From Trypanosoma brucei (lineage: Eukaryota), in NCBI GenBank assembly GCA_000002445.1, contig CM000208.1:480001-544000 (forward strand): 64,000 nt of DNA. The letters run 5' to 3'. Below the pieces are notes generated by a model. It was not told the origin of the DNA and did not search any database. It saw only the letters and a list, made by a program, of their open reading frames with translations. Both the position numbers and the translations under genes were made by a program. How positions within the stretch are numbered: the stretch's first letter is position 1; every line of letters begins with the position of its first letter. Below are positions 8,132-47,304 of this stretch, in pieces.

Positions 8132-11100
8132 TTGGTAATGGCCACGACGCTGGATGACTTATACCAGTACTACTGCCGACGAAAGGGCTGTAAAGCCAAC
8201 AGCTGTTTCTCCCGTTACCTGATTGAAGAATTTGAGCGTCAAGGGCAAAAGCGCGTACTAGAAACAGTGGATCTGTCTCTGAATTACGTGGGAAGGAAGG
8301 GTATAATACCCGTGTTGGACCTCGTCAAGAATGTCAAAACAATAAAGAAACTAAACCTCAGCAACAATATGTTGGAGCACGAGGAGCTGGAGCATCTTGT
8401 CTACTGCCTCGCCCTTCACCCGTCCGTGGAGGAGGTAGTGCTTGCAAATAATTGCTTTCATGATGCCAGCGTTAAAGTAATTCTCGACCTGTTGGAGTTG
8501 AACGGGGGGATCACTACCTTCGATGTTGATGGTAATGAAATCTCGGCGGCTTCCGTCGCGACAATAGGGGAGCAGCTGGAGAAGAATAGAGCGCGTCGTG
8601 CCGAGAGGGAGAGCGATGCATCCCATCCCTCCTTGCGGCGGTGGAGCAAGGCGCAGATTGAAGGATCGATAGATGAGTTAAACTCGGGTGGCCACATACA
8701 CTTCGGTACCTGGTGGAAGAATCCGCAGTACTTCATGCGGACGTCTGCGGGGTCACAAGTTCGCATTGTCATGGATGTTGAGGACGCTAAGGAGGCACGG
8801 CAAGTTGGTTTCTTTGTCTTTCGCTCAAGCGGCCAGTACAGAGTAGTTGAGCTTAGCGAGGGTGTCATTGCTGGGGAGAGTGCTTGTGACCACAGCCATT
8901 GTTACCTGACAATGTCCGTGGAGGAAAACGAGACGTATTCTGTAATGCCGTACACGTTTTATCCCAGTCGTAGCGTAGGGTTCAGACTCACCGCTGAGAT
9001 GTGTTCTGACGACGCATTAAGCTCGAGGGGATGGATCACCCTTGAGCCTGTAGATCCGGCGGTCGATTGGTGTCTGAGTACTCTGGACGGAGAGTGGACA
9101 GAGGAGTCAGCCGGTGGCTCCCACTTAGAGCACACATGGTGTCGTAACCACATGATTCGGGTGCAGTACGCTGGGTCCGTTCTCACGCACCGAATGGCAG
9201 CACCTGCAACGCTAATTGTGAAACTCAGCAAGGGCGTGGACCCAGATGTTAACGATGAAAAGAGTATCGGATTCCACGTACTGACACCAGACACAGAGGA
9301 GGCGTTGTTGCCCCCAATTTTCTGCAAGGACGAGTGCGTAAAGTGTTTCTGTCCGCACGAGCGTACGACAACTATCAGCGCTTCCTTTGCAGTGTCATGT
9401 ACTGCTCTTCAGCTTTTCATCGCTCCGAGCACACTGAATCCTGGACAGGTGGGAAGTTATAACGTCACGGTTTTTTCCTCTGTACCCGTCACACTATCCT
9501 CGTCGGCGTTTCCCCATGGGTGGCACTACCGAAAGGTTGGTGGCTCGTGGGATGAGTATAACTGTGGAGGCTCTCGAAACGCGAGCATGTCGTGGAAGGC
9601 CAATCCCTCCATTGGCCTGAGCGTCGATTCTAGTCAAGAGCCGTCAGATTTCACAGTCTTCTTGGAGGCAGCTTCGCCCGCTTTACCGTTGGTCGTTCAA
9701 GAAGCTGCGGTGGGAGACGGTGCGTGCTCGCGATCCGCCACGCCTGCTCCAGGGGAGTCGCAGGAAGAAGATCCTGATCTTGTGGAGTTTCTGAGAAGGC
9801 ACAAGGCACACCTCATGGAAGCTTGTGTGTCAGTTATTGAGGCCAAGTCTCCACTTTATCGGGAACTACTCACTTCTGGCTACACAAATGGTTCCTTCGC
9901 CCGTCTTATGGTGCCCGGCCTCAACAAACCGTTTCTTCTTCTTGTCTCAACGAGGCACGCGGGACAATTGGGAACATTTGCGCTTCATATATTTTCCCAC
10001 CGCCCTTTTGTTACCGATGGTGTGGAATCATTATTGGCGCGTGAGCGTGAGGTCCACTTGCAGCAGTATGCACTGGAGAACGAAAAACGGCGAACACTTT
10101 TGTCAGCGGCAAAAACTCAACAGATTAGCTTCGACGGCAGCGAGGATGTGGTTGTTGTGCGCAACGAAATCATTAGGCAATGTATGATTACTGGAGAAAA
10201 GTTTGTTGATCGTGATTTCCCCCGTGGTGGTTCCTCACTTTTTCTTGATCCAGATGCAAAACCCCCGCCAATGTTCCCAAAAGAAACGCATTGGAAGCGA
10301 CCGACCGAGTTAATGGAGAAGGTGGTGTTTCTCCCCGACTGGAAGTGTGACGCCCCGTTCCCGTACTCACGGCGGGAGTGGTTTGCATCTGTTGTTCATG
10401 CCATAGCAACGAAGCCGTTGTGGCTGCAGAATGTAGCAGTTGGGTACAATGAAGGCGAGGGAATGGCCCAATTCCGCTTCTTCAAAGACGGGAAGTGGAA
10501 GGTGGTAACCATCGACGACTATCTTCTCTTTGACAGCACAATGGACCTCTGTATGGGGCGGCCGGGTAAGGATAGTGCAGACATTTTTTTTCCATTGATT
10601 GAAAAGGCGTACGCGAAGGCGCATCGTTGCTACGAGACTCTGGAGCCCAAAGTAACACCGGAATTGGGATTCCTAGAGTTGGTGTGCCAGGGCTTGATGG
10701 ACCTTTCGGGCTGTGCAACAATCAACATCCCTCTCATCGGTAGTGTGCGAATGCCCCAAGAGCAACAGGACGTCATCTGGATGGAAATGAAGAACGCCGT
10801 AAAGCCTAATGTTCTTTGTAGTCTGTTGGTTCGTGGTGACAGTAACGGAGCATCAGAACGCCGTGGACGTGGTATACTGGTTGATCATATATATCCTGTG
10901 TTGGACGCCCGATTTCTAGAGGGGTATCGGCTTGTGAAATTACGACATTGGGGACAACCAGAAGAAATTAACCTGTGCAGCAAGTGGCGGTCTTCAAGCG
11001 ACAAATGGACCGACACCATTCGGCAAACTCTTGAATTCAGGGAGGATGACCGTGAGACGTTTTGGCTATCCTTCGACGAAGTACTGTACTACTTTACTAA

Positions 11101-12922
11101 CCTGCTCATCAACGAAGAGACGTCGAGTGTAAGTTGGGCATCAGGTTATTTCTGTGATTGTCCACCGGGTTGCAACGATCGCCTCCTTGGAAGTTCGCAG
11201 TTCTCCCTCCAACTTGGGGAATTTCCACCGGGGTTGAAGAAGGTAAACATTTTGCTGGGTCTTCATCAACTGGATCCACGGACGACCGTACTACGTGACA
11301 AAGAGGCTGTCGCATCCTACCGTACGGGAGTCGGCCTAGAGGTCGTGGGCACTGCCGACAACACTGTTTGGCTGACTGATTTCTCCAAAGCAGAGGTGCT
11401 GAGCCGTCTGGAACCGTGCATGAAACGAGACGCGCTTTGCCCTTTGACTGTGAGCCTTGACAGCGTCGGAGGAAACAAGCTTCTAACCCTCGTTGTGTTT
11501 AAGGAGGAGATGCGCGCTCCCCACGTGCCATTTCTGCTTTCTGCTTGGTCAGAAACTTGTAAAGTTAATGTTGTGGCTGTGGAACGAAATGCTGCGGTTA
11601 CTGTTTGCGACGAATGGCCTCGTGAATTTGCGATAGGTGGTCCCTCGTCTCCGTTTTGGAGAGATTGTCCACAATATTTCATTTATCCAAGTGATACTAC
11701 AGACATCAACTTTTCCCTCAAGCAGGAGTTGGCCTCCGGTGAAATACCCAAGCCAATTGGCTTCACTGTTCACGATGCTAGAGCGTGCCGAAGCTACTTG
11801 GAGTACAACCCCGAGACCGTCATTCTCTCAGTGGCGGCGAATGCATCCCATAAAGTCGAAGGCACCGTTCGTCTTCTCGGTATGAAGGCAAGGAGGGGAA
11901 TGCCTTATATCATTGTCCCCTTCTGCACGGAGGCTGCTCCTGGGGGGTCGTTTACCCTAGAAGCCGTTGCCAATCGGTTTGTAAAGTTGTGCCGCATAAA
12001 CCCGCAGCTGGACTGGTGTCGTGTGACGAAACATGCCTCATTCATGCTCTCCGATGGGAGTGTTGGGGGGTCGTTGCGTTTTTCGTCATGGCGCAGTAGT
12101 CCGCAATTCGCCTTTACCTTCCCGGTTGGTGGGAAAGGTAGATTGCTTGTTTCTCTTTCTAATGACGACGCGGTCGATACGCGGACTGAAGTCGGCATGA
12201 CTCTCCTACTGGGTGATAGGCAATGGGATGAGGGCAAGCGGAGGAAGTTAGTCGTCTCACAGGGGGACATCATAGCGTGCTCGGAGGAGAACATTGGCCG
12301 TTCTACATTGGACTGTGAGATTGATGTGGAACCCGAGCAGACGCTCATTTTGGTTGTGTACGCCAGTCTCCCGTACCGCGGAGCAGACGTCACTTTCACG
12401 GCGTACTCCGCTTTGCCTGTTGAAGTGGAGCCGGTGAAGGAATGGGAGTACGTTGTTATGGCTCAGGGAAGTTGGGAACTTGGTTACACGGCTGGGGGTG
12501 GTGCTGAAGAGTTCGGTAGCTGGGTGAACAATCCTTTTGTGGCGCTGAATACTTTCCGCCGTACGCAAATTGTAGCTCTCCTTCTTCAGTATCCTCGTGG
12601 TCCAGAGAAACCAGTGGTAAAGCGCGCTGGTAATAAAAAGGCATTTTTACCCCCCGTCATTGTAAACCCAAACAACCGCATGGAGATTGCTATCGACCTA
12701 AACTGTCAGGACGAGAACATGACGAGGATCGCTACCACTCCCTATACACGGAACAGCGAAGTGGCCCTGGTGGCTAATGTCCCTGCGGCAGACTCACTTC
12801 CGTTCGTGTTTGTTCCGCACACAAAGTACCCTGAGGGTAATGGAGAGTACAAATTGTTTGTTTACGCTGATTCTCTTGTGGAGCTTTACCCGTTGGAAAA
12901 GAAGCGCGTGCCGTACGTTTGA
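8132..12922 (+). CDS. Calpain-like protein, probably catalytically inactive, with an N-terminal RNI-type leucine-rich-repeat module
   Basis: 1596 aa. The N-terminus (aa 1-150) carries LRRs (LDLSLNYVGRKGIIPVL..KKLNLSNNMLEHEELEHL..VVLANNCFHDASVKVILDLL). A kinetoplastid calpain-type N-terminal region follows (WWKNPQYFMRTSAGSQVRIVMDV). The central calpain protease-like core reads DRDFPRGGSSLFLDPDAKPPPMFP...EWFASVVHAIATKPLW...VDHIYPVLDA...LVKLRHWGQP. The motifs that align to the calpain Cys (DCWFLAA) and Asn (LRNPWG) read REWFASV and LRHWGQ, so the triad looks substituted. Confidence 0.75.
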   Translation: MVMATTLDDLYQYYCRRKGCKANSCFSRYLIEEFERQGQKRVLETVDLSLNYVGRKGIIPVLDLVKNVKTIKKLNLSNNMLEHEELEHLVYCLALHPSVEEVVLANNCFHDASVKVILDLLELNGGITTFDVDGNEISAASVATIGEQLEKNRARRAERESDASHPSLRRWSKAQIEGSIDELNSGGHIHFGTWWKNPQYFMRTSAGSQVRIVMDVEDAKEARQVGFFVFRSSGQYRVVELSEGVIAGESACDHSHCYLTMSVEENETYSVMPYTFYPSRSVGFRLTAEMCSDDALSSRGWITLEPVDPAVDWCLSTLDGEWTEESAGGSHLEHTWCRNHMIRVQYAGSVLTHRMAAPATLIVKLSKGVDPDVNDEKSIGFHVLTPDTEEALLPPIFCKDECVKCFCPHERTTTISASFAVSCTALQLFIAPSTLNPGQVGSYNVTVFSSVPVTLSSSAFPHGWHYRKVGGSWDEYNCGGSRNASMSWKANPSIGLSVDSSQEPSDFTVFLEAASPALPLVVQEAAVGDGACSRSATPAPGESQEEDPDLVEFLRRHKAHLMEACVSVIEAKSPLYRELLTSGYTNGSFARLMVPGLNKPFLLLVSTRHAGQLGTFALHIFSHRPFVTDGVESLLAREREVHLQQYALENEKRRTLLSAAKTQQISFDGSEDVVVVRNEIIRQCMITGEKFVDRDFPRGGSSLFLDPDAKPPPMFPKETHWKRPTELMEKVVFLPDWKCDAPFPYSRREWFASVVHAIATKPLWLQNVAVGYNEGEGMAQFRFFKDGKWKVVTIDDYLLFDSTMDLCMGRPGKDSADIFFPLIEKAYAKAHRCYETLEPKVTPELGFLELVCQGLMDLSGCATINIPLIGSVRMPQEQQDVIWMEMKNAVKPNVLCSLLVRGDSNGASERRGRGILVDHIYPVLDARFLEGYRLVKLRHWGQPEEINLCSKWRSSSDKWTDTIRQTLEFREDDRETFWLSFDEVLYYFTNLLINEETSSVSWASGYFCDCPPGCNDRLLGSSQFSLQLGEFPPGLKKVNILLGLHQLDPRTTVLRDKEAVASYRTGVGLEVVGTADNTVWLTDFSKAEVLSRLEPCMKRDALCPLTVSLDSVGGNKLLTLVVFKEEMRAPHVPFLLSAWSETCKVNVVAVERNAAVTVCDEWPREFAIGGPSSPFWRDCPQYFIYPSDTTDINFSLKQELASGEIPKPIGFTVHDARACRSYLEYNPETVILSVAANASHKVEGTVRLLGMKARRGMPYIIVPFCTEAAPGGSFTLEAVANRFVKLCRINPQLDWCRVTKHASFMLSDGSVGGSLRFSSWRSSPQFAFTFPVGGKGRLLVSLSNDDAVDTRTEVGMTLLLGDRQWDEGKRRKLVVSQGDIIACSEENIGRSTLDCEIDVEPEQTLILVVYASLPYRGADVTFTAYSALPVEVEPVKEWEYVVMAQGSWELGYTAGGGAEEFGSWVNNPFVALNTFRRTQIVALLLQYPRGPEKPVVKRAGNKKAFLPPVIVNPNNRMEIAIDLNCQDENMTRIATTPYTRNSEVALVANVPAADSLPFVFVPHTKYPEGNGEYKLFVYADSLVELYPLEKKRVPYV

Positions 12923-13475: not shown

Positions 13476-15896
13476 ATGTTTCGGCAAACAGTTACATCAC
13501 TGGAGAAACTTGTTATTGTGGAGTCCCCCAACAAAGTCATTAAGATTGAGGGGCTTCTGAGCAATCCAAAGGTGATTCCCGACTGGTCGTTCAAGCAGGG
13601 GCACCTCAAGTGCGTAGGAATAGGTGCTGAGAAAGCAGTGGCAATGGCAACGACCGGCCACTTCATGGCTCTGAAGGAAATTACCTGGATAACACATCCC
13701 CTACCCCCATCGAGTGCAGGGGGAAAACCGCAAGAATATGATGGGGAGGCATTCCCCTCTAGCGGTACCCTTGCAGAGTACACTCTCGAGTGGGAACCGT
13801 TACCAGGCCGCCGTATCCAGGAAACACTTGAGCGCTACATCGAGGGGAAGGTAGAGAATGTGTCTGAAATTATTCTTGCAACGGACCCTGATCGTGAAGG
13901 TGAGCTAATCGCTGTCCATGCCCTTCAGACGATAAAGCGACTGTATCCGAAACTGAAGGTTCCCTTTTCACGGGCGTACATGCACAGCATTACGGAGGAT
14001 GGTATTCGTAAAGCTATGAAAGAGCGGAGTTTGAATATATGTGATTACGACCTCGCAAGTGCCGCGGAGACACGTCACGTAATGGATCGTTTTTTTGGCT
14101 TCTTAGGTAGTTCCGTGGTTCGCGCGGCCAATTCGCAGATGCGTTCAATTGGCCGTGTACAAACACCCGCACTGATTCTCATCAATGAGCGTGAGGATAA
14201 GATTAGCGCTTTCTTGGAGAGGAACAAATCAACGTTTGTAGTTGAGGCGACGTGCCAGTTTCCAGTTCCGCACGGCACAACCTTTTCCCAGGTTGTGGAC
14301 ATTCATTCAGACCGCCGAGGGGCACCGTCACAATGGAATACGGCAGCGGAGGCTAATAACTGCTTGGAGCACTGGAAGCTAGACGGTTGCCACAGTTTCA
14401 GCATTCCACACGATCCAATTGTCACCCCGTCAAAGGTTCCGCCCCCGCAGCCGCTTACGATGGCGGCGGCAATCACAAAGTTGAACCGACAGATGAAGTT
14501 AAGCAGTGAGATGGTCAGCGGTTACCTTCAGGATCTGTTTCAGCTGGGTCATATTACGTACCCCAGGACGGACAGTACGCGGATAGATGAGAGTGCATTG
14601 AAGGATATTTACAATGCCGTGAAGAAGAATTTCGGCAAGGAATTTCTGTATCGTCTTGAGGACCGACCAGCCTCAGGTGGGGATGGTAAAAGGGGGAAAA
14701 AACAAACCAAAAAAAAGACTGCAAAAAGGGGGAAAAACTCGGGGACCCCGGTGGGAAATGTCGAGGATGCTCATGAGGCAATCCGACCAACAAACATCAA
14801 CGTTCAGGGGGATTCACTGTCACTTTCCCCAGAAACGAGAGCAGTGTATGAACTTGTCCGTAGACAGACTCTGGCAGCTTTCATGATCCCACAGGTCGTT
14901 GAGAAGATTGTGGCAGACGTTAAATTTGTTAGCGGTAGCGGAGAGAAATTGACTCTCACGTTAGGTGGCAAGCGGGTAGTGGAGCCGGGATGGACGCGCG
15001 CCTTTCATAAGGGAGACTCGGGAAACTTATCTCTTCATGTCGGCGCTGAGGAGGGTGCCGATGCGGGTGATGAGGGCGCTCCCACCATGTGTTCGCTGTC
15101 CCAGGAGGAATTTTATGCTATCTTAAACCTCCGACGCGTGCTGAACTCGCCGAACCAGCAGCACCTGTTTGAGCTACGTTCTCCGACTATACGTGAGAAT
15201 CGCCCGGTTCCCCCAATGCCACACTCGGAAGGGACGCTCATTGAGGAACTGAAGAGGAATGGTGTAGGAAGACCCAGCACGTATCCCTTAATAGTCAAGA
15301 CACTCTTAGCCCGCGGTTACATTCAGGTGAATGCAAAGGGCCGCTGTGAAACGACGCCGGTGGGAAGGATGCTTGTGGAAACGGCCAAATCGACTTTCCC
15401 GTCCATAGTTGATCTTGGTTTCACAGCATCTTTTGAGAAGCAACTTGATACAGTCGCCAAGCCCCACCCCAATAAGCGACCGGCTTTCCTGCGCTCCACA
15501 AAGATTTCTCAGGCAGACTACGTGTTGTCTATGTTCCTTTCAACATTCCTCAACTACGTGTCGGAGGCTGCGTGCACTCAGCGGGCCCGCATTATCGAGC
15601 GCTCGATGCGACTGAAGCGTGATCAGGAGGGAGGCTCTGGAATAGGGGATGCAGAGTTTGAGGAGAGCGTAGTTGCAGCCAGAAGAAAAGTAACGCTGGC
15701 TTCCACGGATTTGGTGACACTTCCCAAAACATACAACAACTTCTCCACGTTGCAGCGAAACTTGAATGAATATCTTCGACACAATTTTCCACCGTCGCAG
15801 GTTAATGGCTCACCTGCTCCGTCGCCGACTGTTGATGCTCCACGTAGTCGTAGAGGTGGCGCCGGCACGTCGAGGGGTGTTGCGGGCGGTGGGTGA
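13476..15896 (+). CDS. DNA topoisomerase, type IA
   Basis: 806 aa. Toprim motifs IVESPNKV and ILATDPDREGELIA. Active-site tyrosine context GHITYPRTDSTRI (the type IA YPRT[DE]S signature). C-terminal Gly/Arg-rich tail (RSRRGGAGTSRGVAGGG). Confidence 0.85.
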   Translation: MFRQTVTSLEKLVIVESPNKVIKIEGLLSNPKVIPDWSFKQGHLKCVGIGAEKAVAMATTGHFMALKEITWITHPLPPSSAGGKPQEYDGEAFPSSGTLAEYTLEWEPLPGRRIQETLERYIEGKVENVSEIILATDPDREGELIAVHALQTIKRLYPKLKVPFSRAYMHSITEDGIRKAMKERSLNICDYDLASAAETRHVMDRFFGFLGSSVVRAANSQMRSIGRVQTPALILINEREDKISAFLERNKSTFVVEATCQFPVPHGTTFSQVVDIHSDRRGAPSQWNTAAEANNCLEHWKLDGCHSFSIPHDPIVTPSKVPPPQPLTMAAAITKLNRQMKLSSEMVSGYLQDLFQLGHITYPRTDSTRIDESALKDIYNAVKKNFGKEFLYRLEDRPASGGDGKRGKKQTKKKTAKRGKNSGTPVGNVEDAHEAIRPTNINVQGDSLSLSPETRAVYELVRRQTLAAFMIPQVVEKIVADVKFVSGSGEKLTLTLGGKRVVEPGWTRAFHKGDSGNLSLHVGAEEGADAGDEGAPTMCSLSQEEFYAILNLRRVLNSPNQQHLFELRSPTIRENRPVPPMPHSEGTLIEELKRNGVGRPSTYPLIVKTLLARGYIQVNAKGRCETTPVGRMLVETAKSTFPSIVDLGFTASFEKQLDTVAKPHPNKRPAFLRSTKISQADYVLSMFLSTFLNYVSEAACTQRARIIERSMRLKRDQEGGSGIGDAEFEESVVAARRKVTLASTDLVTLPKTYNNFSTLQRNLNEYLRHNFPPSQVNGSPAPSPTVDAPRSRRGGAGTSRGVAGGG

Positions 15897-17615
15897 TCAG
15901 TAGAAAGCATCTGACCCAATGCCGCATGATCTCGGAGCGATATATCCATAGAGCAAAAAAGAGATAAAACATTCATCTTTGCTTGTGTTTTCAAAACGAG
16001 CACGTGCTTAAACGGATGGTTTGTTTCCTTCCCTCCCTTTTTTGTTTTCCCATCTCCCCCCTACACCCCCTCCCCCACATTGTACATGCCTCATGTGCGT
16101 GCCGTGTGGACGAGGGGCATTTGCCATCCCTTCACTCTATTTTCCCCCATTACTGTTTGAGTTTCAGGCGGAAGGGGAGGGAGAGGGGGATCGGGGAAAA
16201 GGGGCCGACAACATCAACACCAATCGAAATGATTTCTAAGATGGGGTAAAAATTATATAAATTAACACGAGTGATGGGAAGGAGGAGGTGCGTGCCGTGT
16301 GTAGACGAGGCGCTGCTGCATCCTCCGTTTACCAGCGACATCGGAGACACCGCATATTTTCTTAAGAAACAGGGGGAGACAGCGGCACGGGGTGTGCTGG
16401 CTTTTTGTCGCCAGTATGTTGTCCGGAAGGGGCCATTTGCGTATTCGTGATTATTTTCTTTTGTTCTTCAGTCTTTACATTTTTGTTAGATTTACTGGTA
16501 ACAATGCGTATGTGTTTCTGCGTACTCCCAATGGGGTACAATAGAGGATGTCGGTGCCAGCGGGTACATACACGTGTACATGCATATACATATATATTTA
16601 TTTATATAGGCAGGCTCATATACATGCACGAGGGCGCAAAAAGAGTCTTTATCATAAATTATTTTTGCGGCCGCCACACTTCCTTTTTTCACGTATAGAT
16701 GCACCGGGTTCTTCCCTTCTCATAGCGTGTGAGTGTTCCGAAGCACCGTTTTCGTTTTCTGGCGCCTTTTTTCCCTTTAAATTGCCATCTGAGTGCTACC
16801 TTTGCATCGTTGTTATTCTTACCACCATCAGCATGGCCATGAGACGTGGTATTACACATTTAGATGGAAGAGCGAACGGTGTGCGCCGTTTTTTTTTTTT
16901 GCTCCCTGCCCATATTACCTCTTAATTATTTGGTCGATCTCGTCCTCACTGTTTTTCTTTCTGCAGGTGATAACCGCCAGTTTGTTTCACGAAGAAATAT
17001 CCATCCGTTTACTTCTCTTTGTCTATCTCATAGCTCTGAAGTTGCGTTCTGCAACAACATCCTATATCTGTCTCATTCTCTGGTTGACTCCAGTTCAACC
17101 TTCTGGCCTAGTGGACCTTGGGAAAAGTACGTGAAGAGAGGGTTGTAAAAAGAAGAAAAGGATAAAGAAGAGTTTTATTTTTTTAAAAATTATTATTATC
17201 GGTTCGGGCAGTCGTGGCCGGGAAGGGTGGTATAGTGTACCTATTCACATTCTCGCATATACTTCTATATCGCTTCACGGGACAAACGAGGGGCGGTTGC
17301 GCTTTTGGCACCGTCAGAACCATCGTGATTGCAGCCGCTCGGTGGCAGACTACTTGGCGTGCTTGGAGTGCCTTGTCGTGTCTGAGAGTGCCATACGTCT
17401 GTTCCCTCGAGTGGCATTTTTTTTTTTGATAACGGCTAGTAGAGGCCGTTGCTCATTTACGCAAGTAGGAAAGAGGGGTTAACGTGGAGACGAAGAGGGG
17501 ACGGTGGACGGGAAGGGACGAGTTGTACCTGTGAGGCTGTGCCGTTAGCGTGTTACTTAAACACTTAGCGGGGCTGCTGTCTTGAGATTCACTGTGAGTT
17601 TGTAGTTGTATTGAT

Positions 17616-20600
17616 ATGAAGCAAGAGTTTGTTCGCCATGTTGACGCATACGATCCTCTTAGTGCTGCACAGCCTCCAGTCTTGGAGACGACCGCATCAA
17701 CCCTTGTGTCGGACAAACCTCCTAACGACAGTTTCGATGTGGACGTGAACAATAGGCCGAACGTTGAAAGGTGCTTTTCCCCCAACCTGTTGGGTCAGCC
17801 TTGTCCTGTTGTATCGAACGGAGACTCATCGAGGAGGCAAGCGACATCCGGCTTTGGCGCATGTGGCGTAGAAATCCACCTGGCCGAGCCGAGCGTGTGC
17901 TCCACCAGGGATTCACAAGTGTTCGCGGAGACGCACGGTTCTCGGTTCATGCGCGGTATTGAACTTCTTGATCGCCTTCCGCATGAAGAGTCAAGGGATG
18001 ATTGCCAAGAGGAAATGGCAAGTGTGTCTGGTGCTCCTCGAAATCACACAAAACCGCAGCCTGAGCAGCAGCAACGGTTAAACCATGAAGAGTTAAGAAG
18101 CCCTCTTAGTGTCCACAGTGTTTGCGTGTGGGAAGTCGATGCACCACGGGATAACAGGATCGTGATAACGGAGGAAACTGAACCAGGCTGGGAACAACCC
18201 GATTCACAGCGGGACGCTGCGCTGCAACAGTTGCTGTGTGACGCTTCGAAGGCTCGTGGTATTAAGCTAACGTGGTTGCTGTGTGGCTTGCTGTTACCTT
18301 TCATGCTCGTGCTCATATCGATGGTGGTGGGAACTGAGTTGCTGTTGAATGTCAAAGTGGCTGAGCCAAGGAAGGATGTCATAAAATTGTCGACCAGGTT
18401 GACACTCAGCCGGTTAAAGGATATGTACTATGATATAAGGAGGATGTCACAGGTTTCTGAAGTAGCTAGGGCCTCATCTAAGGTTGCAGAAAAGCGCGCA
18501 GCACTAGATTCAGTGTGTTCTTTTCTCCGAGGTGCACCAGTAGTCCTTGCCACATACAGTGGTGTAAACGCGTCACTTACGTGGACGCACAACTGCTCTG
18601 CAGGGGATCAGACTGATATAGCGCTTCCATCCACTATGCGTCTCAGTGATCCAACATCCCCTACGCCGCGCATATCGAGATATCGATCTGACTTGCTCAT
18701 TGTGACCGAAAAGTACGGCCCCGAAGCCGATGTGTTCGTAGTGATTCTACGAAGAGACATCACAGGCCTGATGTTGTTGGGTCACTCTCTAGTCGACGAC
18801 TTTACGACGGGGATAAGCCCGTTGGTTGCCATTTTGTTGCCTAGCTTTTCCTCTTCAAGGCTCACCGTCAGTTTGTACAACAATGCCCAATGGCTTGAAG
18901 ACGCCAACCCACAGAATAACCCTCATGATGATGAAGTTCTTCTATTATTCGAAGAATGGTGTTCGTCGGGGGACACACACACATGGCACAGCGTGGGGCG
19001 ACTCCTGCCAGGGGGTTTAGCCAACACAACTGTGGGAGAAGATGTGGCACACTTTCCAGCTCCAGTTCCCCGTCTGGCGGGTGGAGGTTTTTTCAGTGTC
19101 ACCCCCCCTCTGGTGATGTGCAGTACATTTTGCGTAGATGGTACCTCCAACACCTGCGGGAAAGATAACCCCAGCAGTGTGTGGCTTGTTACTTACGGCT
19201 CGTCATCATACCGTGGTCTGGATGGTCTATTGACAACTGCGATGGTGGTTGGTTACACCGGTGCAGTTCTGTTTATGGTAATGTTGTGCTTCGCCTACAT
19301 CAGCATAGATGCCCCCGTTAGTTACCTTAAATCCCTTATTTTTTCTGCTGCCGGGGGGACGGAACGACGCAAAGAGTGGGACCACACCGTGCATGGTTGG
19401 CGTAAGATCTGGCTCGGGGATCTTCGTGCACTAGTGAATACATTTCAAATACTTGCTCTATGTTTTCGATTGAACAAGAAGTACGTGCCCCAGCATATCT
19501 TGGAGAAGCAAGTAAAGAACTTGCTAGATGTGAAGGATAAAATATGCTCCGCTGACACGGATGGGGAGGCGGCGGTGGAAGTCGCCGAGGGGAGGCACAA
19601 TGATGACGATGATGCTGTAGATGACAAGGCGAACGTAGGGGCGTTCGTTTGTGCCGCTACTGTTGCGGATGTCAAATCGAGCATCAGCAAACGAATGTGC
19701 CAGGGGTCTCAGTCGGTTACGTCGCTCAACAGAATACAACCTCTGTGTGGGGTGGGGGACTTACAAGCAACGGATATTGCTGTTGAATCAGGACGGGCAG
19801 CCGCGCTTTCGGGCGCTGCGGACGGCAGGGAACCGGTCAACCGTGGCATGATCCTTGTGGAAAATGCAACTATTCTCACTGTGCACCTTCCCGCAGTGGA
19901 GACAGCGTATTTCACCGATTTTGGGCTTGCTGTTGAGCAACACCGCCACATTATGGCACTTCTTCTGCGCAGTGTTCGGCAGTACCGAGGTGAGCTGTTT
20001 CAACGTAGTGGCGAATGTATTTCTGCTGCGTGGAATGCTTTCGATGGTTGCGCTGACCACGCCATACGGGCGGCGGCTTGCGCTCTTAGAATATTGGATC
20101 GACTAGAAGCCTATCGCCGCGCTGGATTCCGTGTGGGCATCGTGCTCCACCAAGGTCCATTTGTGTGTGGCGTTGTGGAGGATCGTGCGGAGGCTTTCAC
20201 AACCGTGTTTGGTTCTGTCCCACGGCAGGCGATCGTGTTCAGCGAGTTGGCCGCGTCGCTAACGGTTTTTGACGTTCTGATCTCTGAACCAGTCAAGGAG
20301 TCGCTTTCTTCCCACTACGAGTGTATCATGGTGGACGTAATAAAATATCATGAGGACGATCCCCCAATTACACTGTATGAGTTAAGCAAGGAGCGACAAC
20401 TACCGATGACAAAAGGAATGCCCCGGGGCCCATCAGCTTTTGCGGAGGAGCATGCACGTGTGTTTTTCAACTTTCGAAACCACGAATTTGGCTTGGCTCT
20501 GGCCGGCATCGAAAAGATGAAAAGAAGCTTTTCCAAGACAGAGTTACGTCTCCTGTGGCGGATTGAGCAACTCTGTAAATACTACATGCACCATGAGAAG

Positions 20601-38356: not shown

Positions 38357-40477
38357 ATGACCGATAATAAGGTTCTCTACGTTGGTTGCGTTGTTGTCAC
38401 CCTGAAAGAGGTTCGCGTCTGCGGGAAGCAGCTGGAGTGTGAAGCGACCCGCAGTGGTGGCGCCCAGTTCTGCGTGCGTACTGCCGTGGCCGTGGCAGAG
38501 ACTGCAAACCACAGCATACATGAGCGTTTCTGTGAGCGCGTCAACTCCAGCATATACTCCTTTAAAAACAGCACGATGATGGAACAAATGGTGGTACCGG
38601 TGATGCTGTTGCGTTCCCCATCAACCATCGCCACGATGAACGGGAGCAAACACAATGACAAGGTCAATACCAACGGTAGTGCCGATCGCGTCAGGAATGG
38701 TAACAGCGATGTGACTGATCTGGGAGCGAACGGGGAGGATATGGATGTAGGGCTAGATCTGTTTTTGGATATCAGTTTCTTGCATGGAGAATCTATGGTA
38801 TGGAGTCTGCGACGCCGAGTTGAGGTGGAGTCATTGGACGCAATCGCCTCGCAGAATTGTGGAGTTGCAGTTGCGCGCGTGAGTACCGATGTCCTGCAAA
38901 GCAACGGTGTGTTGCCGACTTCAGAGGCTGTACGGGGCGGTTCCGCCGCGTGTGATGCCAGCGATGGACGTGAGGATGATGAATGGTCAGGGTTAGAGTT
39001 GCACGTCATTGTGCGGTCCATGGACATGTCCGAGCCGATTCGGCTGATGGTTGCCGCAGAGCGGGAGGCGAGCGCGTTTCTGGACTTACCTCAGAGAGAA
39101 CCCCAAACAGTATTCTTGTTACCGCTGCGGCATGCCATGCCATACAACGCGCTTCCGCTTGAGGTACTGTACCAGTTTTATTGCTGTTTCTATGAGTATT
39201 TCTTTAACAAGCCTGTTAAAGTCTTTGGGCACGTGGTGAATATGCTGCGTACCCGGCAACCTGGTGGAATGGGTGACAACAAAACACGCGGTGGTGCTGT
39301 TACAGAAGGACGCTGGAGCGAGTTACGCTCCGCTGACCTACGTCCCTTACTTCTCGGTGAAGATGCATTAGCGCCGGTACTGGCCACACTGTTTCACTGC
39401 CCAGGGTTACGTGAGTTACTGTTGGACCAAAACAGTTTGAGTGATATAACGTGCTACCGTATTAGATCCCTGTTTTACCGCCACCGCCACTTAGAGACGC
39501 TGTCCATCGCAAGGAATAATATACATGAGGGTGGCGGCGAGCAGCTTGTGCGCCTCATACGTCGGAACAAGCGTCTTATTGATGTGAAAGCCTCTGGCAA
39601 CCATTTCACGCACTCTATGTCGTCGCGGATCCAGCGTGTGGCGAGTCTCAACGAGGAGTACATAAGGGGGGACCCTTACAATGTCTTTTCATCTGCGTAT
39701 TCGTATGTTGTGTCTCCCACATCGTTCCCGGCTAGCATTATAAAACAAGCACTAGCTGTTTGGGCGATGCTCTCAGCGGCGCCGGTAAGCACGGTAATTG
39801 TAGACTGCGTCCCTAACAGCACTTTTGGGATAGACTTAATGGGTTCTCCCAACAATATGAAAAGCAACGGTTCCCTCCACGGCTCTGCACTTGACAACGG
39901 TGTTGTGGAAGCTACTGATAAGGCGTTGGAGTCCAGCCAAGCTACTTCAATTCCCCATTGTGCGCTCTCGCCTCTCCTGAATGAAGTGATGCGGACTGTT
40001 GCACTACGAATGTCGTCCATTTTACACGACCCGTGGGCACTCCTTGTGTTCTCTGATATTGAAAGTCATTGGGAACGGTGCACCATAACACTGAGGGAAC
40101 AGAAGGAAAAATGCAGCAAACAGGACGCCCAGGCCGCCGCAGACGGGCGAGAAGATGGGCCTGCAAGCATAAGACATGGTGAGGCAGCGTTGTGCGAGGT
40201 GGAGGACTTGTACGCCATATCATTTCTTCACCTTGTGGTAGTGACAATGCGAGCCGTTGGAAGGGCAATGGACTGGGAAGACGCGTCTTCGGTGCTTCGC
40301 GATATTGGAAGGAAGCAGATGGCTATAGGCATTTTAGAAGAAAACTACCGTGATGCTATCCAGATCTTTGTCCAGTCACTTGCAGTGGTGTGTGGGAAAG
40401 ACGAAGCTGACGTTGAGCACTCCGCAGCATTCCTTCAGTGCCTCGCCTTAGGCGTCAGGACTGCAGTAGCAGCGTAA
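38357..40477 (+). CDS. Hypothetical protein with an RNI-like LRR segment
   Basis: 706 aa. The LRR stretch reads LRELLLDQNSLSDITCYRIRSLFYRHRHLETLSIARNNIHEGGGEQLVRLIRRNKRLIDVKASGNHF. The rest has no recognisable domain. Confidence 0.5.
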   Translation: MTDNKVLYVGCVVVTLKEVRVCGKQLECEATRSGGAQFCVRTAVAVAETANHSIHERFCERVNSSIYSFKNSTMMEQMVVPVMLLRSPSTIATMNGSKHNDKVNTNGSADRVRNGNSDVTDLGANGEDMDVGLDLFLDISFLHGESMVWSLRRRVEVESLDAIASQNCGVAVARVSTDVLQSNGVLPTSEAVRGGSAACDASDGREDDEWSGLELHVIVRSMDMSEPIRLMVAAEREASAFLDLPQREPQTVFLLPLRHAMPYNALPLEVLYQFYCCFYEYFFNKPVKVFGHVVNMLRTRQPGGMGDNKTRGGAVTEGRWSELRSADLRPLLLGEDALAPVLATLFHCPGLRELLLDQNSLSDITCYRIRSLFYRHRHLETLSIARNNIHEGGGEQLVRLIRRNKRLIDVKASGNHFTHSMSSRIQRVASLNEEYIRGDPYNVFSSAYSYVVSPTSFPASIIKQALAVWAMLSAAPVSTVIVDCVPNSTFGIDLMGSPNNMKSNGSLHGSALDNGVVEATDKALESSQATSIPHCALSPLLNEVMRTVALRMSSILHDPWALLVFSDIESHWERCTITLREQKEKCSKQDAQAAADGREDGPASIRHGEAALCEVEDLYAISFLHLVVVTMRAVGRAMDWEDASSVLRDIGRKQMAIGILEENYRDAIQIFVQSLAVVCGKDEADVEHSAAFLQCLALGVRTAVAA

Positions 40478-40866: not shown

Positions 40867-43458
40867 ATGGTGGACAAGGAGAATCAGGTGATTAGGTTGC
40901 GACCTTATGAATATATTCATGTAATGGACAGGAACACTTGTGAGGTGATGCTTGTGGAGGGCCCGCGCTCCTTCACGATGTTGGACCACCACATAAGTCT
41001 CCACGACAAGGTGCAGAACCACGTTGTTGTTCCACCGGGCCACTACTGCGAAGTAGAGAACCCCGTGGTGAAGCCGACTGCAAGCTCATCTGTGGGGACC
41101 CTGTGTAATGAGATGGGCCACCGTGAAGTGCGTTTGAGCCAGGACCCGTTCCCGCTGCACCCTGGCGAGAAACTCGTGACGGAACCTCAGCCGATGCGTA
41201 TTCTGGCTGCTAACGAAGCGATTGCGGTGCGTGCGTTGAAGGAATTCACATACTCCGTCCCCGCTCTGGGCGGGAGTAACAACGGTGAGAAGGGTGACAC
41301 CACTGGAGTTGCAGTACGCCGTCGTGCCGTAGGAGAGGTTTGGTTGGTGCGTGGTCCCTGCGAGTACGTTCCGCGTGTGGAGGAGGTGGTGGAGGGCAAT
41401 GTGACGCCCATTTTTCTATCTGCGGGTCAGTCGCTCGTCTTGCGTGCGAACTGCAATTTCACGGATATTAACGGCGTAAAACGGTCACGGGGTGATGTGT
41501 GGGCCGTTACCACTGCGGGCATGCACTTCCCCGATCCGTCGGCGAGCGTCGTGCGTGTGCATGAAGGCGTAATCCTGTCTGCAACGGAAGCGGTGCGTGT
41601 GCGTGCACTCCGCTCGTTCTTCGACCGTCTGGCGGCTGTTGATCGTGTAGCTGGGGAGCGGTGGCTTGTGACACATGATGTCGTGCCGCTGTTTATCCCC
41701 ACAGTGGATGAGGAGGTGGAAGAGAAGATTTCTCTTACAATCGTCGGAGAGCGGCAGTACTGCGAGATACTTAACGTGGTGAAGGGTGGTGTGTGTCACT
41801 ATGGTGTGTGCGAAGTACGCCATGGTCCATGTTCGTTCTTCCTGCAACCTGGAGAAGTCCTGGTAGGTGGAACTGTGCGGGAGGCGCACATTCTCTCCTC
41901 TGACGAGGCGCTTCTCGTCGTCGCCGTCCGTGCCTTTGTGGACGAGGACGGGGTGGAGCGTGAACCTGCATCGCGGTGGTTGGTTCATGGGCCACGGAAG
42001 TACATCCCACCGCAAGGCGTGACCGTGGTGGAGCGCCGGAAGCGGATGGTGTTGAGTGGCAGTGAGGGTGTGTATGTACGTGATATTTGCACTGGCAACG
42101 TGCGGGCGGTGCATGGTGAGGCTGTGTTGCTGGGGCCTGAAGAGGAGTTATGGGAAAAGCCCATCGACCCGCTGGTGCATAAGCTGCTCACTGCCCGCAG
42201 ACACTCCATGTACGCTTCTCGTGTGTGCACAGAAACCTCGGTGGATGTTGGTTCTGAGGGCCATCCGAGGACACACAAGATTGTTATGTTCAAGGTGCCG
42301 CATAATGCACTGGTGCAGCTGTATGACCCGACGACGAACAAGAGCCGCGTGGAGGCCGGGCCACTGACTGTATCACTTGGTCCGAACGAGGAGATTAGTG
42401 TGGTTGTGCTCTCCGGTGGGCAACCGAAGCGGCGTGGTCACATTCACTCACTGTTTCTCTTTTTGGGTCCTGACTTTATGGCTGACAAGATTGTTGTCGA
42501 AACACTTGAGCACGCGCGGTTGCAACTTGAAATTGCGTACAATTGGGAGTTCGACACAACGGATGTGGAGCATATCAAGCGTATCGCCTTCAGCGTGCCG
42601 GACTTCGTTGGCATGGCGTGCAAGACACTGGCGAACCGAATCCGTGCTGCGATTGCCAGTGAACCGTTTGATAACTTCCATCGAAATTCATCCTCCCTCA
42701 TACGGCGGGCCATATTCCACTCACACTCCGGAACGACGGAGCTGCGTGGCGACAGTCTTTACTTTCCTGTGAACGGCCTTGTGATAACAAATGTGGACGT
42801 ACGCAGCGTTGAACCGGTTGAGGTGAAGATGCAAAACGCCCTCACGAAAAGTGTACAGCTCGCTGTGGAGATTATTACCAAGTCCCAGGAAAACGAGGCT
42901 TCCCACCAGGCGATGTTAATGGAGCAGGAGGAGAAGGGTGCGCTAGAGCTGCAACTGATGAAGGACCGCGTGTCGGCAGAGGAGGAGCGAGTGAAACTGT
43001 TGCGTGTTGTTGCCGAAAACACTGCAATCGAACTGTGCGGCGCGAGCAAGGCGCAGGCGTTGGCTGAGAGCGAGGCGCGTTGCGTGGAGTCGCAGGGCGA
43101 ATTGGATGTAACAGGGATAAGATGTGAAGCCCAGTCGCTGATTGCCGCTGCGCAGCTTGCCGGTCTCCGGGAGCGGGTGGAAAGCAAACTCTGCCACCGG
43201 CGGGCTATGGATGAACTTGCTATCGCGAAAGCCAAGGCCCTCTCGGACATCGATGCGACGAAGTATGAGAAGATATTTGAGGCTCTGGGTAAGGGAACAT
43301 TTGAAGCTATTGCGCGGGCTGGACCGGAACTAAAGGCGAAATTGCTGCAGGCGCTTGGTCTCAAGGGATTCCTTGTAACTGATGGTTCAACACCGATTAA
43401 TTTGCTCGGAATTGCAGACTGCGTGCTGCACAAAAATGGGAACGACGCGTTGCCATGA
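40867..43458 (+). CDS. MVP: Major vault protein (MVP)
   Basis: 863 aa. Collinear matches to the MVP family: N-terminal repeat LRPYEYIHVMD...PPGHYCEVENPV, repeated EWLVRGP/RWLVHGP vault-repeat motifs, the shoulder region LQLEIAYNWEFD and FSVPDFVGMACKTLANRIRAAIAS, a coiled-coil cap helix, and the C-terminal LKAKLLQALGLKGFLVTDGSTPINLLG. Confidence 0.85.
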   Translation: MVDKENQVIRLRPYEYIHVMDRNTCEVMLVEGPRSFTMLDHHISLHDKVQNHVVVPPGHYCEVENPVVKPTASSSVGTLCNEMGHREVRLSQDPFPLHPGEKLVTEPQPMRILAANEAIAVRALKEFTYSVPALGGSNNGEKGDTTGVAVRRRAVGEVWLVRGPCEYVPRVEEVVEGNVTPIFLSAGQSLVLRANCNFTDINGVKRSRGDVWAVTTAGMHFPDPSASVVRVHEGVILSATEAVRVRALRSFFDRLAAVDRVAGERWLVTHDVVPLFIPTVDEEVEEKISLTIVGERQYCEILNVVKGGVCHYGVCEVRHGPCSFFLQPGEVLVGGTVREAHILSSDEALLVVAVRAFVDEDGVEREPASRWLVHGPRKYIPPQGVTVVERRKRMVLSGSEGVYVRDICTGNVRAVHGEAVLLGPEEELWEKPIDPLVHKLLTARRHSMYASRVCTETSVDVGSEGHPRTHKIVMFKVPHNALVQLYDPTTNKSRVEAGPLTVSLGPNEEISVVVLSGGQPKRRGHIHSLFLFLGPDFMADKIVVETLEHARLQLEIAYNWEFDTTDVEHIKRIAFSVPDFVGMACKTLANRIRAAIASEPFDNFHRNSSSLIRRAIFHSHSGTTELRGDSLYFPVNGLVITNVDVRSVEPVEVKMQNALTKSVQLAVEIITKSQENEASHQAMLMEQEEKGALELQLMKDRVSAEEERVKLLRVVAENTAIELCGASKAQALAESEARCVESQGELDVTGIRCEAQSLIAAAQLAGLRERVESKLCHRRAMDELAIAKAKALSDIDATKYEKIFEALGKGTFEAIARAGPELKAKLLQALGLKGFLVTDGSTPINLLGIADCVLHKNGNDALP

Positions 43459-45888: not shown

Positions 45889-47304
45889 ATGTCTAGACGC
45901 CTAAACAATATCCTCGAACACATCTCGATCCAGGGAAATGATGGTGAGACTGTGCGTGCCGTTAAGCGTGATGTTGCAATGGCAGCGCTGACCAACCAAT
46001 TCACAATGAGTGTCGAGTCTATGCGACAGATCATGACATACCTCCTGTACGAGATGGTGGAGGGTCTTGAGGGTCGTGAAAGCACCGTCCGCATGTTACC
46101 ATCTTATGTATACAAGGCGGACCCTAAGCGTGCTACTGGCGTCTTCTACGCACTTGACCTCGGTGGTACCAACTTCCGTGTGCTGCGCGTTGCATGCAAG
46201 GAGGGTGCCGTGGTGGATTCCTCTACTTCTGCATTCAAGATTCCCAAATATGCCCTTGAGGGTAACGCCACCGATCTGTTTGGCTTCATTGCATCCAATG
46301 TGAAGAAAACCATGGAAACTCGTGCACCTGAGGACCTCAATCGCACAGTTCCTCTTGGGTTTACCTTCAGTTTCCCCGTGGAGCAGACGAAGGTTAACCG
46401 TGGTGTGCTTATCCGGTGGACGAAGGGCTTCAGCACGAAAGGCGTTCAAGGAAATGATGTGATTGCCCTTCTTCAGGCTGCTTTTGGGCGAGTGAGCTTG
46501 AAGGTGAATGTTGTGGCGTTGTGCAACGACACTGTTGGAACATTAATTTCGCATTACTTTAAGGACCCTGAGGTACAGGTTGGTGTGATTATCGGCACTG
46601 GTTCCAATGCGTGCTACTTTGAGACGGCGTCTGCTGTGACGAAGGACCCTGCCGTTGCTGCTCGTGGGTCAGCACTTACTCCCATCAATATGGAAAGCGG
46701 CAACTTTGACTCCAAGTACCGGTTTGTCCTCCCTACGACGAAGTTCGACTTGGATATTGACGATGCGTCGTTGAACAAAGGTCAACAGGCGCTGGAGAAG
46801 ATGATATCCGGCATGTACCTCGGCGAAATCGCCCGCCGCGTTATTGTGCACCTGTCGTCTATTAACTGCCTTCCTGCGGCACTGCAGACTGCTTTGGGCA
46901 ACCGGGGGTCGTTTGAGTCCCGATTTGCCGGGATGATCAGTGCTGACCGTATGCCCGGACTTCAGTTCACTCGCAGCACGATCCAGAAGGTGTGTGGTGT
47001 TGACGTGCAGTCAATTGAAGACCTTCGCATCATTCGCGATGTGTGCCGCCTTGTCCGTGGGAGGGCTGCGCAACTCTCTGCTTCCTTCTGCTGCGCTCCA
47101 CTGGTTAAGACTCAAACACAGGGCCGTGCAACTATTGCAATTGACGGCTCCGTGTTTGAGAAGATTCCGTCATTCCGCCGCGTCTTGCAGGACAACATCA
47201 ACCGTATCCTTGGCCCTGAGTGCGATGTCAGGGCCGTTCTCGCAAAGGATGGCAGTGGAATTGGTGCTGCATTTATTTCCGCAATGGTGGTGAACGACAA
47301 GTAA
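45889..47304 (+). CDS. HK: Hexokinase, tandem copy 1
   Basis: 471 aa. Hexokinase motifs ALDLGGTNFRVLRV, LGFTFSFPVEQT and IGTGSNACYFE. The N-terminal MSRRLNNILEHI fits a PTS2 (R-L-x5-H-I) glycosomal signal. The C-terminal tail is ...AKDGSGIGAAFISAMVVNDK. Confidence 0.95.
   Translation: MSRRLNNILEHISIQGNDGETVRAVKRDVAMAALTNQFTMSVESMRQIMTYLLYEMVEGLEGRESTVRMLPSYVYKADPKRATGVFYALDLGGTNFRVLRVACKEGAVVDSSTSAFKIPKYALEGNATDLFGFIASNVKKTMETRAPEDLNRTVPLGFTFSFPVEQTKVNRGVLIRWTKGFSTKGVQGNDVIALLQAAFGRVSLKVNVVALCNDTVGTLISHYFKDPEVQVGVIIGTGSNACYFETASAVTKDPAVAARGSALTPINMESGNFDSKYRFVLPTTKFDLDIDDASLNKGQQALEKMISGMYLGEIARRVIVHLSSINCLPAALQTALGNRGSFESRFAGMISADRMPGLQFTRSTIQKVCGVDVQSIEDLRIIRDVCRLVRGRAAQLSASFCCAPLVKTQTQGRATIAIDGSVFEKIPSFRRVLQDNINRILGPECDVRAVLAKDGSGIGAAFISAMVVNDK

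Follow-up and report, generated by a model that had tools for sequence, protein, structure and literature searches.

The 64,000-nucleotide stretch of Trypanosoma brucei DNA analyzed here (contig CM000208.1, hereafter the window) carries the open reading frame (ORF) of Tb927.10.1910, whose product is probably a euglenozoan two-pass membrane kinase and a paralogue of RDK1 (repressor of differentiation kinase 1, Tb927.11.14070). In such a receptor, a dCache-like sensor would be connected through the membrane to a pseudo-cyclase transducer and to a mitogen-activated protein kinase kinase kinase (MAP3K) as output. The original prediction, made from the DNA letters, had proposed a candidate transmembrane signalling receptor; this interpretation is supported by the present results, with one motif and one analogy corrected.

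Identity of the gene and organization of its product

In the ORF listing of the window, a single ATG-to-stop ORF of 1534 residues occupies exactly positions 17616..22220 of the plus strand. Its translation shows 0 differences from XP_822447.1 / EAN77619.1 / Q38C51 of T. brucei brucei TREU927, and the other Trypanozoon isolates differ from the window allele at 4-6 residues. The substitutions S138F, S328F, A542V, G712E and L1154P distinguish the TREU927 allele from these isolates; A542V is located inside the second transmembrane helix and S328F adjoins the invariant Cys327. The forward primer 1910MF, a published reagent for the tagging of "Tb927.10.1910" (PMC6283605), matches positions 21469-21487 of the window exactly, and the 749 bp from the primer site to the last codon correspond to the 769-bp amplicon of the same study minus two 10-nt adapters. 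Since the published primer fits exactly and the amplicon length agrees, the ORF is the already published gene Tb927.10.1910. The mass of 168 kDa and the TMHMM helix 218-240 given for this gene in PMC8519429 are in agreement with the ORF.

The orthologue set was taken from an exhaustive phmmer search of residues 201-1270 against 1.84 billion representatives, which returned 55 proteins. About 19 of them are full-length orthologues or close relatives, among which T. congolense, T. vivax, T. melophagium and Leptomonas seymouri are represented, and two orthologues carry the depositor annotation "adenylate and guanylate cyclase catalytic domain". The word-indexed protein search was not used as a source of orthologues: with the non-kinase part it returned the self cluster only, with the cyclase region it gave nothing, not even the query, and with the orthologue profile it gave only unrelated giant kinases. 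Domain-by-domain searches revealed that conservation is focused on four places, namely the loop, the segment that follows the second transmembrane helix, residues 741-1015 and the kinase, and that the N-terminus and residues 641-740 and 1016-1265 are variable. The features of the gene are as follows.

17616..22220, plus strand: complete ORF of Tb927.10.1910, 1534 residues and stop codon (ORF listing, identity to XP_822447.1, match of primer 1910MF)
17616..18260, plus strand: N-terminal region, residues 1-215, of low conservation, probably cytosolic and disordered; the T. congolense orthologue is the only one that aligns with it
18270..18338, plus strand: transmembrane helix 1 (TM1), residues 219-241, Kyte-Doolittle peak 2.61, hydrophobic in all orthologues
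18339..19232, plus strand: predicted extracytoplasmic loop, residues 242-539 (298 residues), with a dCache-like (double-PDC) sensor fold and six invariant cysteines
19233..19304, plus strand: transmembrane helix 2 (TM2), residues 540-563, Kyte-Doolittle peak 2.15, conserved hydrophobic block through which a model helix passes
19305..19535, plus strand: conserved juxtamembrane segment, residues 564-640; P567 and P625 are invariant, and the segment contains LNKKYVPxHIL (orthologue alignment)
19536..19835, plus strand: variable acidic low-complexity insertion, residues 641-740, alignable only among close relatives and of varying length among orthologues
19836..20360, plus strand: degenerate class III cyclase-homology domain, residues 741-915 (orthologue profile, AlphaFold2 model, Foldseek, catalytic map)
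20361..20660, plus strand: post-cyclase extension, residues 916-1015, three helices and a conserved LPxPYxRxxPxW motif, modelled as one unit with the cyclase-like domain
20661..21410, plus strand: Ser/Gly/Arg-rich linker, residues 1016-1265, poorly conserved and disordered, alignable only among salivarian trypanosomes
21411..22217, plus strand: STE-group (STE11/MAP3K-like) protein kinase domain, residues 1266-1534, with all catalytic motifs intact (Pfam, PDB relatives, motifs)

The C-terminal domain is a predicted intact STE-group kinase

Residues 1274-1532 match the Pfam Pkinase family with E=1e-52, and the motifs GKGSFGCV, AIK, HRDVKPQN, DFG, APE and DIWSCG are all present. The top PDB relatives of the domain are MAP3K2 (E=1.3e-33), MST3/4, STK25, ASK1 and PAK1. 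As MAP3K2, MST3/4, ASK1 and PAK are the solved structures nearest to it, the domain was placed in the STE group and, as judged from its sequence, it is an intact STE11/MAP3K-like member, which is in line with the intact STE-like Ser/Thr kinase announced by the original prediction. The gene product has also been called STE11 or putative MAPKKK by others (PMC6283605).

The central domain is a class III cyclase homologue

The original prediction had proposed to let the cyclase assignment stand or fall by the threshold of the Pfam Guanylate_cyc model. Read literally, this test goes against the assignment, as the single T. brucei sequence does not reach the PF00211 gathering score of 21.9 bits, neither in the full protein (15.0 bits) nor as an excised domain (18.6 bits). 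In the same way, a single-sequence phmmer search of the cyclase region against the PDB gave only matches with E-values of 0.4-1, five of the six being cyclases, a result that is superseded by the profile search. With a profile of the 19 orthologues, 45 PDB sequences were matched at E<=1, and 44 of them are class III cyclases (best E=1.8e-8). These matches comprise bacterial cyclases, sAC and PAC; a chain of a trypanosome cyclase is not among the PDB matches of this profile at E<=1. Furthermore, 12 of the 19 orthologues match PF00211 at E<=0.01 (best 3.8e-6) and match no other family. Bona fide members of PF00211, CHASE2-cyclases and GAF-cyclases among them, were also reached by the exhaustive phmmer search (67-98 bits).

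The AlphaFold2 model of the cyclase-like domain and its extension (predicted local distance difference test (pLDDT) 87, predicted template-modelling score (pTM) 0.85 for the whole unit) was compared with known structures by Foldseek. The top 50 matches are all cyclases and the best one is Rv1625c (E=3.7e-13, TMt 0.79), the closest folds being Rv1625c, CyaB, Cya2 and PAC. In the extension, the three helices were modelled at 204-217, 221-234 and 237-255 (model numbering); this part is conserved in 15 relatives, and F950 and H956 are invariant. The phmmer reach, the 19-orthologue profile, the 12 matching orthologues and the structural comparison of the model thus make the homology of residues 741-915 to class III cyclases secure in spite of the sub-threshold PF00211 score, and the beta-alpha-beta-beta-alpha-beta core of the cyclase fold is present. 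The class III cyclase-like domain of the original prediction is therefore retained.

The catalytic residues of the cyclase-like domain are replaced

The catalytic positions were located in an alignment of the family to five bona fide cyclases, and each position was followed in the 19 orthologues with the following result.

First metal Asp: His757; never acidic in the orthologues, in which His, Arg, Asn, Lys, Tyr and others are found
Substrate Lys: Gln796; not Lys in the orthologues
Second metal Asp: Glu800; Asp or Glu in the orthologues
Transition-state Asn: Arg870; most orthologues also have Arg
Transition-state Arg: Val874; kept as Arg by two distant members only and replaced in the others

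Four of the five positions are substituted non-conservatively and the fifth conservatively (Asp to Glu800), and none of the trypanosomatid orthologues keeps the Lys, the Asn or the Arg. Neither the two metal-binding Asp residues nor the Lys/Asn/Arg set that characterize class III cyclases are found. In the original prediction, FTDFG had been cited for the cyclase-like domain; as a metal-Asp motif it has to be abandoned, since the F-x-D-I-x-G-F-T strand of the cyclases aligns to LTVHLPAVE with His757, which precedes FTDFG by about 10 residues. The exchange of GD for GE at the second metal site, noted at the same time, is confirmed as Glu800 in the alignment with the bona fide cyclases. On account of these substitutions, the cyclase-like domain of Tb927.10.1910 is most likely a pseudo-cyclase without cyclic AMP (cAMP) or cyclic GMP (cGMP) synthesis. 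The earlier suggestion that the domain could be regulatory and not catalytic is consequently strengthened: it is probably non-catalytic, and the substitutions far exceed the single one that had been seen. By analogy, the pseudo-enzyme reading is backed by the paralogue RDK1, which in vitro is active as a kinase but not as an adenylyl cyclase (bioRxiv 10.64898/2026.05.05.722970).

It could be argued that the protein is a bifunctional enzyme in which an active adenylyl or guanylyl cyclase with a non-canonical chemistry is present besides the kinase. The complete and confidently modelled cyclase fold, the acidic residue kept at the second metal site in the orthologues and the conserved Glu762 (Glu/Asp in most orthologues), which lies near the lost first Asp, are compatible with this idea, and the RDK1 authors themselves allow for a guanylyl cyclase activity (bioRxiv 10.64898/2026.05.05.722970). 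The same authors report, however, that RDK1 is devoid of adenylyl cyclase activity and that its depletion leaves cAMP unchanged and, taken together with the first metal position that is never acidic, the replacement of the substrate Lys and of both transition-state residues in the trypanosomatid members and the Pfam score below the gathering threshold, this makes a second enzymatic activity highly improbable.

Two predicted transmembrane helices surround a loop with six invariant cysteines

Hydropathy was calculated according to Kyte and Doolittle with a 19-residue window. The two helices around a loop of about 300 residues that the original prediction had described were found at residues 219-241 and 540-563, on either side of a 298-residue loop, and both segments are hydrophobic in 16 of the 16 aligned orthologues. 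The TMHMM helix reported at 218-240 in the T. brucei protein (PMC8519429 S2 Table) corresponds to TM1, and two TMHMM helices, with a spacing equal to that of T. brucei, are given for the T. cruzi and L. major orthologues (PMC8519429). Three Lys/Arg residues immediately precede TM1, and the enrichment of Lys/Arg before TM1 and after TM2 favours an extracytoplasmic position of the loop. The same position is argued for by the cysteines, whose conservation the original prediction had proposed to check: C301, C327, C449, C502, C506 and C514 are all invariant in the 16 orthologues, pointing to an oxidising environment, and the T. brucei loop contains no cysteine beyond these six. Glycosylation sequons are present in the loop at N318, N326 and N470.

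The loop was modelled with AlphaFold2 from the alignment of the 16 orthologues (pLDDT 78, pTM 0.72). In the model, a long helix running on from TM1 (H14-81, model numbering) is followed by two beta-rich modules and by a helix that leads into TM2 (H329-375), and Foldseek relates it to TlpC and TlpA with a probability of 1.0. This arrangement of a long N-terminal helix and two PAS-like alpha/beta modules between two transmembrane helices is that of the dCache domains, and the loop of Tb927.10.1910 is accordingly described here as having a predicted dCache-like fold. At the level of the sequence, no Cache family of Pfam was matched at E<=0.1 by any of the 16 orthologues, the orthologue profile of the loop gave nothing relevant against the PDB, and NCBIfam gave nothing useful on the loop and the cyclase region. 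No published text giving a dCache fold to Tb927.10.1910 itself was found.

Behind TM2, the invariant LNKKYVPxHIL motif (residues 619-630, positions 19470-19505) resembles the [RK][YF][VL]SPxV pre-catalytic helix of bona fide class III cyclases, a likeness observed at the level of the motif. In bona fide cyclases this helix precedes the metal-Asp strand by about 30 residues, versus 132 residues before His757 (position 19884) in the present protein. The acidic insertion of about 100 residues thus appears, from the alignment, to have split the KYVP helix from the cyclase core within an ancestral module. A HAMP domain at residues 564-620 was also considered and rejected: the segment has no Pfam or PDB match and its hhalign comparison with a HAMP-bearing relative gave a probability of 0.2%, so that the likeness to HAMP exists at the pattern level only (P567 ... 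G ... GDLRALVNTFQIL).

Compartment of the protein and points opposed to a receptor

Several observations weigh against a two-pass receptor with a pseudo-cyclase. The C-terminally myc-tagged protein has been described as cytosolic in bloodstream forms (PMC6283605), the N-terminal TrypTag fusion gave a faint "endocytic and cytoplasm" signal (PMC8519429), and TMHMM detected TM1 only in the T. brucei sequence (PMC8519429). The dCache assignment is based on a medium-confidence model (pLDDT 78) with TM-scores of about 0.5 and no sequence-level match, and the acidic residue (Asp or Glu) kept at the second metal site makes nucleotide or metal binding by the cyclase-like domain conceivable. As for the function, the individual melarsoprol validation reported in PMC6283605 covered MAPK11 and MKK4, not Tb927.10.1910.

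The two tagging results and the single TMHMM helix could together indicate that the protein is not a receptor at all: the hydrophobic stretches would be buried helices, or an anchor only, of a cytosolic or peripheral MAP3K with its N-terminal half as a scaffold. This is very unlikely, as two segments of about 23 residues with Kyte-Doolittle values of 2.15-2.61 are conserved in the 16 orthologues, the loop cysteines are exactly six and all invariant, and the modelled fold of the loop resembles dCache domains that are extracytoplasmic in their bacterial hosts. As to the tags, it is argued for Leishmania that they may upset the insertion of such kinases (bioRxiv 10.64898/2026.09.15.751656), and five related tagged transmembrane kinases co-localise with BiP.

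This last observation, together with the "endocytic" TrypTag signal of Tb927.10.1910 (PMC8519429), bears on another possibility, namely that the protein is a stress sensor of the endoplasmic reticulum (ER) or endosomes, nearer to IRE1/PERK than to a surface receptor, in which the dCache-like domain would read, in place of an extracellular ligand, luminal parameters, for example pH, ions, lipids or cargo. The five tagged kinases in the ER include RDK1, Tb927.3.5650 and Tb927.9.12400 (PMC8519429), and the Leishmania relatives have been tied to low-pH responses. Conversely, ER retention may come from over-expression and tags, and the sole direct bloodstream-form record for Tb927.10.1910 is the "cytosol" description (PMC6283605). 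An endomembrane sensor of this kind is possible, if doubtful, and it departs from the two-pass receptor kinase proposed above in its compartment only, the mechanism being alike.

The fusion spans Euglenozoa

Beyond the orthologues, the cyclase-like region was matched in distant proteins from Papus, Sulcionema, Rhynchopus, Diplonema, Artemidia and Entosiphon. Most of these distant euglenozoan proteins pair it with a C-terminal STE-type kinase; in one Diplonema relative the kinase is represented by a sub-threshold fragment only. According to these sequences, the fusion of a cyclase-like region with an STE kinase spans Euglenozoa, from kinetoplastids to diplonemids and a euglenid, and its presence in the last two groups makes it older than the kinetoplastids. 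The published accounts consulted take such kinases back only to Bodo saltans.

Relation to known receptors and cyclases

The architecture is already known for Tb927.10.1910 and for its class, and the dCache fold places this gene, itself known, in a class already described. In PMC6283605 the protein is a putative MAPKKK that carries "a putative transmembrane domain" together with "a putative guanylate cyclase domain", and in PMC8519429 it is one of three T. brucei kinases for which a nucleotide-cyclase-like domain is listed. A blueprint made of sensor, transmembrane segment, cyclase-like domain and kinase was reported for RDK1 (PMC8519429), and "dCACHE flanked by two TMs, NucCase, kinase" was described for Leishmania RDK1 and LmxM.30.1830/40 in a 2026 preprint (bioRxiv 10.64898/2026.09.15.751656). 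In Tb927.10.1910 the same elements were found in the same order, i.e. a sensor flanked by two transmembrane helices, a cyclase-like fold and a C-terminal STE kinase.

RDK1 resembles Tb927.10.1910 in that a bacterial-type sensor between transmembrane segments precedes a cyclase-like fold and the chain ends in an STE kinase (PMC8519429), and the TPR motif that follows the cyclase-like region in its T. cruzi orthologue (PMC1266030) parallels the three-helix extension of Tb927.10.1910. It is nevertheless a distinct paralogue of 131 kDa, against 168 kDa for Tb927.10.1910, encoded on a different chromosome; its T. cruzi orthologue is reported to pass the Pfam HAMP model (PMC1266030), which Tb927.10.1910 does not, and its phenotype is repression of differentiation, whereas Tb927.10.1910 is a hit of the melarsoprol RIT-seq screen. 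Leishmania RDK1 and the L. mexicana proteins LmxM.30.1830/LmxM.30.1840 (STE30/40), in which a dCACHE flanked by two transmembrane helices, a cyclase-like fold and a kinase were recognized with AlphaFold3 and Foldseek, have been proposed as homodimeric environmental (pH) sensors. Tb927.10.1910 is likened to them by architecture, and its Leishmania orthologue is a chromosome-21 gene according to a table of PMC8519429.

Bacterial membrane proteins with Cache or CHASE sensors, both class III cyclases and chemoreceptors, share with Tb927.10.1910 the succession of TM1, extracytoplasmic sensor, TM2 and cytosolic cyclase-homology domain. The closest non-euglenozoan sequence matches are CHASE2-cyclases and GAF-cyclases, and the pre-catalytic helix [RK][YF][VL]SPxV of the bacterial cyclases recalls KYVPxHIL. 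The trypanosome protein differs from them by the loss of the catalytic residues, by the insertion of about 100 residues between helix and core and by the fused eukaryotic kinase output. With the metazoan receptor guanylyl cyclases GC-A and GC-C, a comparison already drawn for RDK1 (bioRxiv 10.64898/2026.05.05.722970), the common traits are membrane dimers that combine a kinase fold with a class III cyclase fold, one of the two domains being a regulatory pseudo-enzyme. The order is inverted: in GC-A and GC-C a pseudokinase precedes an active cyclase, whereas in Tb927.10.1910 the putative pseudo-cyclase precedes an intact kinase, and the single transmembrane helix and PBP-type ectodomain of the former are replaced by two transmembrane helices and a dCache-like loop.

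The ESAG4/GRESAG4 cyclases of trypanosomes possess a signal peptide, a periplasmic-binding-protein-like ectodomain, one transmembrane helix and a catalytically active domain. The original prediction had compared the layout of Tb927.10.1910 with these receptor-type adenylate cyclases. The comparison holds loosely for the organism, for the large extracytoplasmic domain and for the cytosolic class III cyclase fold. It fails for the two internal transmembrane helices, which come after a 215-residue N-terminal region, for the dCache-like loop and for the substituted catalytic residues. Because the ectodomain fold and the number of transmembrane helices differ and because trypanosome cyclases are absent from the profile matches, the likeness is weak. 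Better analogies are offered by the bacterial Cache/CHASE2 cyclases and, if enzyme and pseudo-enzyme are taken to have exchanged roles, by the metazoan receptor guanylyl cyclases.

Genomic environment

All 20 ORFs of at least 250 residues in the window are on the plus strand, which is the pattern expected of one trypanosomatid polycistronic unit. Antisense ORFs of 110-191 residues inside or overlapping the gene were considered and, given that all ORFs of at least 250 residues are on the plus strand, were taken as chance. The genes upstream of Tb927.10.1910 code for a 1596-residue calpain-like cysteine protease (Peptidase_C2 and Calpain_III; 8132-12922, plus strand) and an 806-residue type IA topoisomerase (Toprim and Topoisom_bac; 13476-15896, plus strand). 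Downstream, a small protein kinase of 345 residues is encoded two genes away (26419-27456, plus strand), a leucine-rich-repeat protein of 723 residues three genes away (27780-29951, plus strand), and, at 40867-43458 (plus strand), an 863-residue homologue of the major vault protein that contains an MVP shoulder domain and Vault repeats.

About ten genes downstream, two tandem hexokinase genes of 471 residues each (45889-47304 and 48935-50350, plus strand) match Pfam Hexokinase_1 and Hexokinase_2 with E-values of about 1e-61 to 1e-65. We take them to be, probably, TbHK1/TbHK2 (Tb927.10.2010/2020), and this synteny was used to check the assignment to chromosome 10. No Pfam family was matched by the ORFs of 647 residues (23562-25505) and 706 residues (38357-40477), and the Rfam scan of the whole window gave zero matches. 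Both intergenic flanks of Tb927.10.1910 contain (TA)n-type simple repeats (about 16548-16650 and 22500-22680), read as "IYIYIYIY" in ORF translations, and the GC content of their windows is lower (0.46-0.48).

Proposed mechanism and significance

In the mechanism that we propose, the N-terminus and the whole part that follows TM2 would be cytosolic, and the loop would face the exterior, the flagellar pocket, or the endocytic or ER lumen. The protein would be a homodimer, as is the case for bacterial Cache receptors and class III cyclases. A ligand or a physico-chemical cue perceived by the dCache module would shift TM2 and the juxtamembrane helix, and the cyclase-like domain, no longer producing cAMP or cGMP, would act as a dimeric transducer and scaffold that sets the activity of the C-terminal MAP3K.

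MKK4 (Tb927.8.5950) and MAPK11 (Tb927.10.12040) are likely downstream partners, proposed because they were selected together with Tb927.10.1910 by melarsoprol: the three genes are among the top seven hits of the RIT-seq (RNA interference, RNAi) screen (PMC6283605). The knockdown of MAPK11 or MKK4 raises the half-maximal effective concentration (EC50) of melarsoprol 1.5- to 1.7-fold and relieves the mitotic block (PMC6283605). These data suggest a three-tier cascade MAP3K -> MKK4 -> MAPK11, the order of which is deduced from the kinase class only.

The degenerate pocket of the cyclase-like domain could moreover have kept the capacity to bind a small ligand, whether a nucleotide, a cyclic nucleotide or some other molecule, which would turn the protein into a two-input receptor kinase; we regard this extension as speculative and rather unlikely. 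If it were true, an external cue (dCache) and an internal metabolite (pseudo-cyclase) would be integrated ahead of the MAP3K -> MKK4 -> MAPK11 cascade, and that cascade would control mitosis and arsenical sensitivity. It would then be a eukaryotic two-input receptor kinase built on a bacterial Cache-cyclase chassis, a chassis found across Euglenozoa.

To our knowledge, trypanosomatids have neither G-protein-coupled receptors nor receptor tyrosine kinases. Their few transmembrane kinases are obvious candidates for sensors of the host and vector environment, and Tb927.10.1910 is one of them, linked by RNAi to the action of melarsoprol. The significance of the gene and of its class is already recognised in print and the present additions are incremental. 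They consist, for Tb927.10.1910, of the predicted dCache-like fold of the loop with its six invariant cysteines and of a second conserved transmembrane helix, of a residue-by-residue map in which the catalytic set is missing from the cyclase-like domain throughout the trypanosomatid orthologues, of a KYVP pre-catalytic helix apparently split from the core by an insertion, and of the occurrence of the cyclase-like and STE kinase fusion in diplonemids and a euglenid besides kinetoplastids. Tb927.10.1910 is still worthwhile as an experimental target.

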